A stretch of 10,172 bases of DNA from a virus (taxonomy: Duplodnaviria; Heunggongvirae; Uroviricota; Caudoviricetes): IMG/VR virus record IMGVR_UViG_2778261532_000011. One strand, 5' to 3'. The notes beneath the pieces were generated by a model. The model was not told where the DNA came from and did no database searches. It was given only the letters and a program-made list of their open reading frames with translations. Both the position numbers and the translations under genes were made by a program. Below, piece by piece: positions 1,037-9,589 of this stretch. Numbering within the stretch: the first letter of the stretch is position 1; each line of letters begins with the position of its first letter.

Positions 1037-4000
1037 TTATGCGTATTGTTGGATGACGGCCAGAACGTCCGCCACGTTGTGTTTTGTCTCGATAATCCAC
1101 CAGTTACCCGGGAAATCGCTGTTCTTCGCCTTCGCTGGCAGCCAGCGAGCGCCGAATTTCGCCTTGATTGCGTCTTTCGCACGGAAAAGAACGCCTTTCA
1201 TGCCTGAGGCTTCCTGAAGCCCAAATACCTCGCCAGCGGCGAATTTCGGTGCGTACATCATCTTCAGGTCGGCGGTGGATACGCGATAATTCAGACCAAG
1301 AGACTGAGCTATGCTGGTGGCATCACCCTGTATTGATGATAACTCTTCTTGTTTCTCGTTTCTGGCGGCAATTTCTTCCTCCGTGATGTTGCCAAGGGCC
1401 AGGTTTATCCGATCAGCGTCTGCCTGTTTCTCTTCATCGGTGCGCCCGGAAAGTACCGTGTTAATTCTGTGCAATATCTCCACATGGTTCTTGCGCATGC
1501 TGAGCAATTCCGGCGTAACCTCGTTAAGGTCCACCAGCCCAAGGATGGCAAGGTCGGAAAACATTGATACCAGGTTGTAGGTCATGCGATAGCTGAGTTG
1601 GCCATAGGCTGATGGCAACTGCACCGCATCCATTTGATAGGCATCCATAAATTTAGAGCCGTCGTTTACGACATCCGCAATTGCCGGTGTGATTTTCCCT
1701 GTGGCGGCGGCCTCCCTGATTGCTGTTACCCACGATTGAGTCAGCGCGGCGACTGCATGATTCAGATTGGCTTTCCGTTCTGCTGCAATGCGCGCGCTTG
1801 CTGCGTCCATTGCCTGCTTGATCTCGTCTTTATTGCTGTAAATGCCAATGGGGCCAAACTGTGTTGTGGTGATCTCATAATCTGACGCCCGGAACTCATT
1901 GGTACCGAAAATGGCATTGGTGACCTCAAGTTCAGAATCCCCGTTACGAGTAGCCCCCTGGCTTGTTTTCTCCGGCATTTTTGCGATCGCATCCGCTATG
2001 TTCTCCTGAATTGCTTCAGGGGATAGCGTATCTCCGTATGACGCGATTACATCGCCATAATTGGAACCAAACAGTTCAACCAGGAATGCTTCTGCCAAAC
2101 GGACCTGGCGGTTATTCCCTTCAGACATCATACCAAGCACCCATTTTGCAATTGACGACTTCAGCGCGCCGTCACGGCGATCCGGGTAAACCGCATGCTT
2201 CAGTGGGTCCGTATAGGTACCAACAAAATCAATGCTATAGCCTGACTCTGTAGTCTGAACGCCGTATGAGTCAGTGATTTTGATCATGCCGCGCTGCTGG
2301 AAACGGTAGAAATCGTCACAGGAAATGATGTCGTTAATCCCGGCGATGGAGACGCCACCACTGATTTTCTGCATAACAGCATCTTCATCGGGAGTTACAT
2401 CAACCTGTTTATCCAGCGTCTTCACATCCCAGTTACCCGATTTGGTGCCTTTGAAGGTAAAGATGATCTCCACGTCTGCGCGCTGGCTGTCGAAGTCCAG
2501 CGACTTAATGCGAACGATATCACCGGCACAATCGTAGTATTGGCCTACACGCCATGAGCGATCGCCGATAACAAGGAACTCATTCGCATGGTTAACCAGA
2601 TCAGGATCAACATCCAGAATGCCTTTATTTATTGCATCCTCCACCAGCGGGCGCAGGCGTTTGATATCCGTCGCGGCCTTCTGAGTACGGTTCAATAATT
2701 TCTCATAGCGGGAGATGGCCTGAGAGATATTAGCCTTGCGCTGAATGGCGCTTTTCAACGACGCGCGATACTGTGCTAACAACGTACGGTCTGTGTGATG
2801 GACGCTACCCCAGCGGGCCTTCCAGTCTGCGTTATCAGCTGCTTTGGCCATTACCGCCTGTTTGAATTTAGCTACCTCGGCGGTGGTCTTTTCAAGTTCC
2901 GCTTTGCTTCGCTCTAATTCAGCGGTAAGTACCTCCACATCCTCGCCAGCTGCGTGCTGCGCCTTGATGTAGTTCTGAAGGTCGATAGTAGCCTGTTCTT
3001 TCTGGCGAGCGCGTTGCGCGGCTTTCGCCTTATCCATTTGAACCTGCATCATTGCCAGACGTTCGCCATCATCCTTAGCGGTATACATCTGCATTTCGAT
3101 CATATCGTTGGCGTCGGCGTTCTCCATTTCAGACTTATCTGAGCGGAGGATATCGGAGATCCAGCCTGCTTTACGCTTCAGCGTCTTCAGTCGGTATTCA
3201 TCGAAAGAACCCTTGCCGCAGTAGTAGTGAACGCGAACGCTTGCACGGTTGGAACCAACTCGGGCACCGCGACCGTTACGCTGTGCGATACTGGCTGGTG
3301 TCCATGGCAACGTCAGATGATGGATGTCAGTCGTTCCTCGATGCAGGTTGATACCCACCTCTGCCTTTTTGTTGCAGATGATGATCGGAGTCCGGCCCTC
3401 CTGGAAGTCGGCAGCAATCTTTTCCAGCCCGCCCAGCGACATTTCATTTTGCTGCGCGATATAGGCGTCATACAGAGCCATTTGCTCGTTGTATTTCGCT
3501 ATCTGTGCATCTGTTGGTTCATCCGGTAGCTCTTTCGGCGGTTTAACCGCTTTCAGTTTCTTACCGGTTTTACCTGCCTCGGCAACCGTCTGAGCATTCA
3601 GGATCCCCACCTTTGAAGGTTCAAGGTTAAGAGCATTGCAGATAATGCGCTTGAGCTTCTGGTGCTGCGTTTTTTCGTCCGTGAAGATGATTTGCTTACC
3701 TTCCGGGAAAAACTCCTTCAGCGTGGCGATCAGCTTCGCGTATTTGGGCGTAACGGGGTGAGTTACGGTCTGTTCGTCAATGCCAAACTTGGCCAAGCGC
3801 TTATTCACTTCCTGCTCGAACGCTTCCGGAACCTGCAACTGAATAAACTCGCCCTTATCTATCAGGGAGTATTGCGATTGCTGCGTGATTGAATCATCAC
3901 TGTCGTCGTCTTCGCTGGTGGCTTGTTTGGGCAAACTGTCCGCCAGCTGCTGCACCGCATCGGCGTACTCCGGCAGGAAACGATAGGTGATCCGGCGATA

Positions 4001-7879: not shown

Positions 7880-9589
7880 TTGGCAGACAATAAAATCACG
7901 CTATCCTCGGTCAGGAAGGCGCTGGCGGGGGTTTTTAAAGACAACGGAGAACGGGACAACATCCTCCTGTCCGCGCTGGCTGTGCACGGCGGAAGTGGGT
8001 ATTTGTTTTCTCGCGCAGGGGCACCGGTACAACTGTCCGGCTTCTTAGGCGGCAAACCGGGCGATAGTGGCATGGCTGGCGATGGGCTGGTGGACGGAAG
8101 TCGCTTTATCTTTGATGAAGTTCAACTGCCGGAGGACCGCTTGCAACGCTATCCGCTACTCGAAGAGATGGCGGTTTACAGCACGATCGCCACCGCGCTG
8201 AACATCCATATTACGCACGCGCTCTCTTTCGATAAGAAGACCGGGCAAACTTTCTCTATCGTGCCGGTACATCACGGAAACGATAGTGACTATGACGCCG
8301 CGCAGGCGTTGTGTGACGAGCTGATGAACGACATCGGGCGAACCATCAACAAAGAGGTCGCCGGGTGGGCATTTATCATGTCTGTATTTGGGGTGGCTTA
8401 TGTCAGGCCATACGCCAAAGAAGGCATAGGGATCACGTCTTTTGAGTGCTCCTATTACACCCTTCCGGGCTTCATCAAAGAGTTCGAGGTCAGCGGCAAC
8501 CTGGCGGGATTTAGCGGCGATTATCTGAAGGACGCGTCAGGGAAAATGGTTTTCGCCGATCCGTGGGCCATTATCCCTATGAAAATCCCCTACTGGCGGC
8601 CTAAGTCAAACCTTATGCCTGTGCACACTGGCCATAAGGCTTACAGCCTGCTGGATAATCCGGAAGAGCGCACACCGATTGAAACCCAGAATTACGGGAC
8701 CAGCTTGCTCGAATACGCCTACGAGCCGTACATGAATCTGCGTTCGGCGATCCGCTCACTGAAGGCAACGCGTTTTAACGCGTCGAAAATTGACCGAATC
8801 ATCGGCCTGGCGATGAATAGTCTGGATCCGGTAAAAGCAGCCGATTATTCACGCACCATTACTCAGACGCTTAAACGAGCAGCTGACCTGATGGAAAAGC
8901 GCGCACGCGGCGCGAATAACATGCCTACGGTGACCAATACTCTGCTGCCTATTATGGGCGACGGCAAGGGACAGATGACTATTGATACTCAGACCATCCA
9001 GGCTGACATCAACGGCATTGAAGACATTCTCACCTATATGCGCCAGCTGGCGGCAGCACTTGGCCTCGATTACACCCTCCTGGGGTGGGCAGATCAAATG
9101 TCCGGCGGGCTTGGTGAAGGTGGATTCCTGCGCACGGCAATTCAGGCCGCCATGCGCGCCTCATGGATCCAGCAGGGCGTAGAAGAGTTCATTCAGCGGG
9201 CTATCGATATTCATCTTGCTTTCAAGTACGGCAAGGTTTACCCGGAAGGTGATCGCCCGTACAAAATCGAATTCCACTCCGTTAATACCGCTCTGCAACA
9301 AGAGCACAACGATAACCGCGACTCGCAGGCGAACTACGCCACCATCGTTACGCAAATCCTCGATGCCGTCAGCAATAACAGCGTCCTCGCTAATTCCGAT
9401 GCATTCAAACGTTACCTGTTCAGCGATGTGCTGGAGATTGACGAAAAAATCTCTGAAGCACTGGTGAACGAACTGAAAGCTAAAAGCGAGGACGACGATC
9501 ACCTGATGGATTCCATCATCAAAACACCGCCACAGGAACTGGCGCAAATCCTTGAATCGGTCTTTAAAGAGGGAAACGATAATGACTGA
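7880..9589 (+). CDS. 569-aa protein of the virion structural module; putative portal protein (Prt-like) by size and position next to the darB-like gene
   Basis: Long clean ORF. The first in-frame candidate start after the upstream stop (TAA 7868-7870) is TTG at 7880, preceded by AAGGTG (7869-7874) at 5 nt spacing; the first ATG is not until codon 64. Stop is TGA at 9587-9589. The C-terminus is acidic (SEDDDHL...EGNDND). Portal assignment rests on recalled P1 gene order (darB next to prt and pro), not on a motif. Confidence 0.6.

Follow-up and report, generated by a model that had tools for sequence, protein, structure and literature searches.

Chi recombination hotspots in the darB gene of a P1-like plasmid prophage are kept by selection on the DNA itself

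Chi, 5'-GCTGGTGG-3', is the recombination hotspot of RecBCD in enterobacteria. The enzyme enters DNA at double-strand ends and reads the octamer only when it approaches from the 3' side; recognition lowers its nuclease activity and leads to the loading of RecA. Here we analyze Chi in a 10,172-bp stretch of viral DNA (IMG/VR record IMGVR_UViG_2778261532_000011, referred to at its full length as the window), which, judged by its sequence, comes from a P1-like plasmid prophage (Punavirus) and covers its darB region. Positions 318-9959 of the window are 98.3% identical to P1 9750-19391 and keep the P1 gene order lxc-ulx-darB-prt-pro (start). More than 400 P1-like plasmids carry the segment, at identities of up to 98.6%. 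For the Chi content of P1, later papers cite the 2004 P1 genome paper of Lobocka et al.

The closest described system is P1 itself. Its virions contain linear DNA, packaged by processive headfuls from pac, whose terminal repeats measure ~5-10 kb. Circularization of this DNA, hence growth of the phage, depends on host RecA and RecBCD, the yield being ~20-fold lower in recA and recBC null hosts and in recC mutants blind to Chi (bioRxiv 10.1101/2021.07.08.451572; PMC12315714). Subramaniam and Smith described a concentration of the 50 P1 Chi sites at headful ends and proposed direct selection for circularization (bioRxiv 10.1101/2021.07.08.451572; PMC12315714). Our counts for P1, 11 sites in darB and 50 in total, match the published ones (PMC11109961; bioRxiv 10.1101/2021.07.08.451572; PMC12315714). 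All 12 Chi sites of the window coincide with P1 Chi sites at homologous coordinates (offset 9432). With Chi thus identical, the present copy differs from P1 in having a SIR2-family gene instead of EcoPI res-mod on the left and an insertion sequence in pro on the right.

Two further systems offer a comparison. In the LLS class of lambdoid phages, which lack a Rec module and are rich in Chi, no octamer is more frequent than Chi; the sites gather near the DNA ends, and it has been proposed that they recruit RecBCD of the host for growth that depends on recombination (PMC12315714). These phages are unrelated to P1, package from cos or pac, and have sites that mostly point the same way, toward the right end, while orientations in the window are balanced at six to six, fitting variable headful ends. 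The Escherichia coli chromosome shares with darB the octamer, the enzyme and the preferred coding frame CTG-GTG; its Chi sites are co-oriented with replication and can arguably be explained by codon usage (bioRxiv 10.1101/2021.07.08.451572). It has already been published that P1 is rich in Chi, that darB holds 11 sites, that no octamer outranks Chi and that the sites concentrate near genome ends, and the circularization hypothesis is likewise in print; the value of the present analysis lies in confirmation and quantification rather than discovery. What it newly adds, in quantitative form, is the near-complete use of synonymous opportunities for Chi, the controls with variant and permuted octamers, the turnover of sites in phage D6, the lack of Chi in a Bordetella homologue, and the change in use as one moves away from pac.

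A pattern search for 5'-GCTGGTGG-3' found 12 exact matches in the window, six per strand, where dinucleotide-preserving shuffles have a mean of 0.27 and a maximum of 2 (0 of 200 shuffles reach 12). A first-pass annotation made from the letters alone had listed 12 Chi octamers against about 0.3 expected by chance; the search returns the same positions and the shuffles the same expectation. It had also placed eleven of the twelve within a darB-like gene, and the open reading frame at 1037-7804 on the minus strand indeed contains 11, the remaining site lying within prt. With both strands counted, Chi is the top-ranked octamer of the window (12) and of darB (11). Orientations are 5 plus and 6 minus in darB, and 6 and 6 with prt included. 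The matches are to the exact enterobacterial sequence, their frequency exceeds what composition and coding predict, and near-identical elements reside in Enterobacterales (Escherichia, Salmonella, Shigella and Klebsiella, which also host the P1-like plasmids mentioned above). The sites are listed below with the reading of each in darB codons, its P1 coordinate, and its conservation in the darB genes of phages JK004 and D6, which are compared further on.

1313-1320, plus strand: Chi, antisense in darB, GCC ACC AGC (Ala-Thr-Ser); P1 10745
1531-1538, minus strand: Chi in darB, GGG CTG GTG GAC (G-L-V-D); P1 10963; kept in JK004
2641-2648, minus strand: Chi in darB, CCG CTG GTG GAG (P-L-V-E); P1 12073; kept in JK004
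3914-3921, plus strand: Chi in darB, GCC ACC AGC (A-T-S); P1 13346; kept in JK004
4306-4313, minus strand: Chi in darB, GCG CTG GTG GGC (A-L-V-G); P1 13738; kept in JK004 and D6
4577-4584, plus strand: Chi in darB, CCC ACC AGC (P-T-S); P1 14009; one mismatch in JK004
5933-5940, plus strand: Chi in darB, GCC ACC AGC (A-T-S); P1 15365; kept in D6, one mismatch in JK004
6122-6129, plus strand: Chi in darB, TCC ACC AGC (S-T-S); P1 15554; kept in JK004
6454-6461, minus strand: Chi in darB, CAG CTG GTG GAC (Q-L-V-D); P1 15886; kept in JK004
6645-6652, minus strand: Chi in darB, GCT GGT GGT (A-G-G), the sole site in that frame; P1 16077; not kept in JK004
7618-7625, minus strand: Chi in darB, TCG CTG GTG GAC (S-L-V-D), nucleotide 180 of the coding sequence; P1 17050
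8086-8093, plus strand: Chi in prt, at the only position of that gene permitting Chi; P1 17518

Sites on the plus strand are predicted to be active for RecBCD travelling from right to left, and those on the minus strand from left to right. Five of the six sense-strand sites in darB lie in the frame N-G CTG GTG G-N (x-Leu-Val-Asp/Glu/Gly), and all five antisense sites read N-CC ACC AGC (x-Thr-Ser). The first 350 codons of darB contain a single Chi, at 7618-7625, which therefore corresponds to the one site mutated in plasmid pRA by Skutel et al. in 2024; RecBCD- and RecA-dependent Chi activity is documented only for the equivalent of this site, whose mutation abolished the restriction alleviation that depends on both proteins (PMC11109961).

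Direct selection at the DNA level maintains the Chi sites, for the most part through synonymous codon choice; they do not simply follow from coding for DarB. When synonymous codons were shuffled with the protein and its codon usage preserved, darB contained a mean of 0.67 Chi and a maximum of 5 in 5000 shuffles, and shuffling the positions of whole codons gave a mean of 0.36, against 11 observed; the enrichment described in the first-pass annotation thus survives codon-preserving shuffles. We also counted permitted positions, defined as places where the amino-acid sequence allows the octamer via synonymous codon choice; the peptide contexts concerned are x-L-V-[ADEGV], [APST]-T-S and A-G-G. 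In the window, darB carries Chi at 11 of its 15 permitted positions (73%) and prt at its single one, compared with 14 of 51 (27%) in a 50-kb sample of E. coli K-12. As controls, the 24 one-mismatch variants of Chi fill 10 of 226 permitted positions (4.4%) and 167 other permutations of the octamer fill 32 of 1017 (3.1%). DarB moreover offers 15 peptide contexts that allow Chi, where amino-acid shuffles offer 6.6 ± 2.5 (P = 0.002), which hints that selection for Chi has shaped the amino-acid sequence too.

Homologous genes in other phages show that the Chi signal tracks the Chi of the host rather than the protein. Cronobacter phage JK004, whose darB is 78.6% identical in nucleotides and 85.7% in amino acids, has 8 Chi sites in that gene; 7 of the 11 darB sites of the window are kept at the homologous position, compared with 14.5% of all aligned 8-mers (P = 2.6e-4), and one JK004 site has no counterpart in the window. 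The darB of E. coli phage D6 is more distant, at 43.5% amino-acid identity, and here too Chi ranks first among octamers, occurring at 7 of 14 permitted positions with 1.0 expected. Five of these seven sites are at non-homologous positions, which points to independent gains or turnover. The homologue in Bordetella phage PHB04 has no Chi at any of its 6 permitted positions.

These results bear on the simplest explanation of the count, namely that it follows from the DarB sequence, from codon or codon-pair preferences (CTG-GTG, ACC-AGC) or from internal repeats without any selection. The common G-CTG-GTG-G frame of the sense-strand sites would suit such an origin, as would the fact that CTG is the commonest leucine codon of darB (46%), and Chi frequency in E. 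coli has been ascribed to codon usage (bioRxiv 10.1101/2021.07.08.451572). However, one-mismatch variants that share the same codons are left mostly unused, synonymous shuffles fall far short of the observed number, and the Bordetella homologue fills none of its positions. Together, the synonymous shuffles, the octamer controls and that homologue refute an origin without selection, which we regard as having almost no chance of being correct. Internal repeats were ruled out as the source of the sites, as the flanks of the 11 darB sites all differ.

Chi is also dense in the replicon at large. The first-pass annotation had called for comparison with the host chromosome and with the remainder of the replicon. 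The E. coli chromosome has 1008 Chi in 4.64 Mb (0.22/kb, 217 per Mbp or ~1 per 4.6 kb) and the window has 1180 per Mbp. The P1 genome has 50 Chi sites (27 plus 23 on the two strands) against ~2.8 expected from shuffles, a density of 0.53/kb or ~2.4 times that of E. coli. Outside darB, the density of P1, the closest sequenced replicon, is not ordinary either, at 0.44/kb (39 sites in 88 kb) or ~2 times that of E. coli. The darB gene is the part of P1 densest in Chi, with 1.63/kb (1625 per Mbp), ~7.5 times the E. coli value and ~3.7 times that of the rest of P1 (Poisson P = 3e-4). Across the 105 annotated P1 genes, Chi is present at 45 of 117 permitted positions, where P1 codon usage predicts 5.7. 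This use follows a gradient when measured as distance from pac (P1 90806) in the direction of packaging:

0-30 kb downstream of pac: 24 of 36 permitted positions used (67%)
30-65 kb downstream of pac: 5 of 36 permitted positions used (14%)
65-94.8 kb downstream of pac: 16 of 45 permitted positions used (36%)

The zone near pac differs from the middle one with p = 9e-6, and darB lies within it, 14.5-21.2 kb downstream of pac. In P1, darB uses 11 of 14 permitted positions and its pac-proximal neighbors cre, ref, mat, prt, pro, ssb and isaA use 13 of 22 (p = 0.29); at 31-33 kb from pac, darA and ddrA have 4 permitted positions, none of which carries Chi. We accordingly rejected the idea that darB is special beyond its position, its use of permitted positions not being significantly above that of pac-proximal genes. 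The gene holds most of the sites in the window because it fills two-thirds of it, is close to pac and offers more permitted positions per kb (2.1-2.2, against 1.4 in P1 coding DNA overall). The co-location of Chi with darB therefore looks positional rather than functional, and incidental.

We consider it likely that the sites have been selected so that RecBCD and RecA can close headful-packaged DNA into a circle by recombination between its terminally redundant ends. This explanation combines the presence, specificity, selection, host tracking and genome gradient of the sites, as found here, with the RecBCD dependence of P1 growth, the circularization step and the location of virion ends, which come from the literature or are deduced from it. 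Headful packaging from pac would give linear, terminally redundant and partly permuted virion DNA, and RecBCD would enter it at both ends after injection. On meeting a correctly oriented Chi within the terminal repeat, the enzyme would change over from degrading the DNA to loading RecA onto its 3' tail, and the coated tail would recombine with the repeat at the opposite end to yield a circular genome. Molecules whose repeats exclude lox should need this route most. If the repeats measure 5-10 kb, headfuls two to four should end at darB, and the six Chi per orientation in the window would give RecBCD several chances from either direction: minus-strand sites would serve enzyme that enters at a left end and travels rightward, plus-strand sites enzyme that enters at a right end and travels leftward. 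Such an even split between orientations suits ends that may occur on both sides, and in P1 the use of Chi is highest downstream of pac, where headful ends would fall. Our positional analysis agrees with the account of Subramaniam and Smith and adds numbers to it.

Several points weigh against this explanation. The role in circularization is deduced from position and host-gene requirements rather than from removing Chi in P1, and the virion-end positions relative to darB are calculated from the quoted 5-10 kb of redundancy. Statements about the whole replicon use P1 as a proxy, the closest match being 98.6% identical, and the present copy, with pro interrupted, may be a defective prophage in which Chi is inherited rather than currently used. 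Moreover, Chi is enriched 65-95 kb from pac, mostly in plus orientation, outside the repeats of processive headfuls from pac. Between 77.6 and 94.7 kb on the P1 map, a region upstream of pac that continues to lox, 12 of 15 sites are on the plus strand. Since headful repeats do not cover this zone, at least one more selective pressure must be acting there, and the plus orientation upstream of pac would also suit repair of forks from oriR.

A role in replicon maintenance could supply such a pressure. Chi would then serve the repair of forks and double-strand breaks in a low-copy plasmid prophage, and the darB cluster would be only the densest part of a genome-wide pattern; it may in addition save the loose ends of rolling-circle concatemers, as well as the end that stays unpackaged after the pac cut. 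The enrichment of the entire P1 genome agrees with this, as does the orientation of sites from oriR (62.7 kb) to lox, where 16 of 21 are plus and 5 minus, resembling the leading strand of an E. coli replichore. From 77.6 kb to pac, 10 of 13 sites are in plus orientation and face RecBCD that comes in from the unpackaged side of the pac cut and heads away from the packaged DNA; the midpoint of darB is roughly opposite oriR on the circle, and Chi rescue of broken plasmids has been suggested by Skutel et al. (PMC11109961). On the other hand, orientation in darB is balanced, without a fork-related bias, and the middle of the genome, which is replicated equally, fills its permitted positions less often than the E. 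coli sample (5 of 36 against 14 of 51), so that replication alone does not set Chi density. As the main reason for the sites, maintenance seems quite unlikely to us; it is compatible with circularization and may act in addition to it, and a role in maintenance or concatemer rescue is probably added to the one in circularization. A different proposal, close to that of the first-pass annotation, is that the array serves chiefly to keep linear phage DNA, whether newly injected or cut by restriction enzymes, from being digested by RecBCD, and so backs up DarB. It is established that Chi attenuates the RecBCD nuclease, linearized plasmids without Chi are fully degraded by RecBCD (PMC11109961), sites in both orientations would halt degradation from a break on either side, and the cluster is located in an antirestriction gene. 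Yet P1 grows ~20-fold more poorly without RecBCD or RecA; the enzyme is needed, which is the opposite of what would be predicted were it only a threat. A fragment spared from degradation would still require a homologous partner for its rescue, Chi gave no gain in establishment (unmethylated plasmids with and without Chi established equally poorly in EcoKI+ cells; PMC11109961), and the use of permitted positions is regional, as the comparison of darB with its neighbors and with darA and ddrA shows. We find this proposal unlikely. What survives of the earlier claim is the relevance of Chi to linear phage DNA facing RecBCD; simple shielding is not what the published evidence shows, the better-supported view being that P1 makes use of RecBCD. 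The further suggestion that Chi complements the antirestriction gene is possible but unsupported.

A third possibility is antirestriction by the DNA itself, in which Chi in darB would promote RecBCD- and RecA-dependent recombination, generate unmethylated type I sites and lead ClpXP to degrade HsdR, so that darB DNA alone lowers EcoKI restriction. Skutel et al. reported that DarB protein is not needed for plasmids bearing darB, or just the first 350 codons, to alleviate EcoKI restriction, which occurs even with a premature stop, and that the effect requires the single Chi equivalent to 7618-7625, an EcoKI site in the vector, ClpX, RecA and RecBCD; Chi and an EcoKI site on a resident darB plasmid together trigger the ClpXP-dependent alleviation (PMC11109961). 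The same authors attribute this to a conflict, or an artefact, that arises when multicopy plasmids are resident; they think it improbable that such a strategy evolved, and they observed no benefit on entry (PMC11109961). The P1 prophage is low-copy. The 6.8-kb darB has no EcoKI site, and the window has the one listed below, where 1.3 are expected. We judge it highly improbable that this explains the sites. Chi and the DarB protein might instead form a two-layer antirestriction unit: a type I cut of incoming P1 DNA left unprotected by DarB would let RecBCD enter, the dense two-way Chi array would convert the enzyme to a recombinase, and the molecule would be rescued by recombining with its terminal repeat or with a second copy brought in by co-infection, while ClpXP-mediated restriction alleviation might also be provoked. 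Such a unit we hold to be distinctly unlikely.

485-497, minus strand: EcoKI recognition site AACNNNNNNGTGC, in lxc, the only one in the window

Avoidance of EcoKI sites was considered as a separate signal and discarded as uninformative, the observed 1 and the expected 1.3 in the window not differing significantly.

The darB gene is among the clearest cases of a short DNA motif selected for itself within protein-coding sequence: over 6.8 kb, almost all codon contexts able to spell Chi do so. It also illustrates that a phage can depend on, rather than evade, a host enzyme usually called an antiphage nuclease. For those cloning darB or recoding P1, it is relevant that the DNA alone causes Chi-dependent restriction alleviation and SOS induction (PMC11109961).

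The genes that the window shares with P1 are as follows.

318-566, minus strand: lxc (bof), C1 repressor modulator gene, holding the EcoKI site
563-1003, minus strand: ulx, with one position permitting Chi, which is unused
1037-7804, minus strand: darB, encoding the 2255-aa defense-against-restriction protein (methyltransferase and helicase), which is injected from the capsid; 98.6% amino-acid identity to P1 DarB
7880-9589, plus strand: prt, putative portal protein gene

Similarity to P1 ends at 9959, within the head processing gene pro (start ~9582). The last 213 bp of the window (9960-10172) match, at 99.5% identity, an insertion sequence that has two open reading frames for transposase, one of which is elsewhere annotated as an ATP-binding protein. 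Its junction in pro was absent from all matches in the phage, plasmid and E. coli genome collections. Judged by this sequence, pro is probably disrupted in the present copy and the element may be a defective phage.

On the other side, positions 1-317 are unlike P1 and include an open reading frame at 19-276 on the plus strand. Positions 1-276 are the 3' end of a gene for a SIR2-family NAD-dependent deacylase, 434 aa long in the closest plasmids, which occupies the EcoPI res-mod slot of P1 between ref/mat and lxc. This slot looks like an exchangeable position for defense genes in P1-like elements. In P1, the stretch of res-mod, IS5, lxc and ulx (3790-10744) forms 7 kb without Chi inside the Chi-dense zone near pac. 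It coincides with the low-GC EcoPI cassette (res has 35% GC) and IS5, and is consistent with recently acquired DNA in which Chi has not accumulated.

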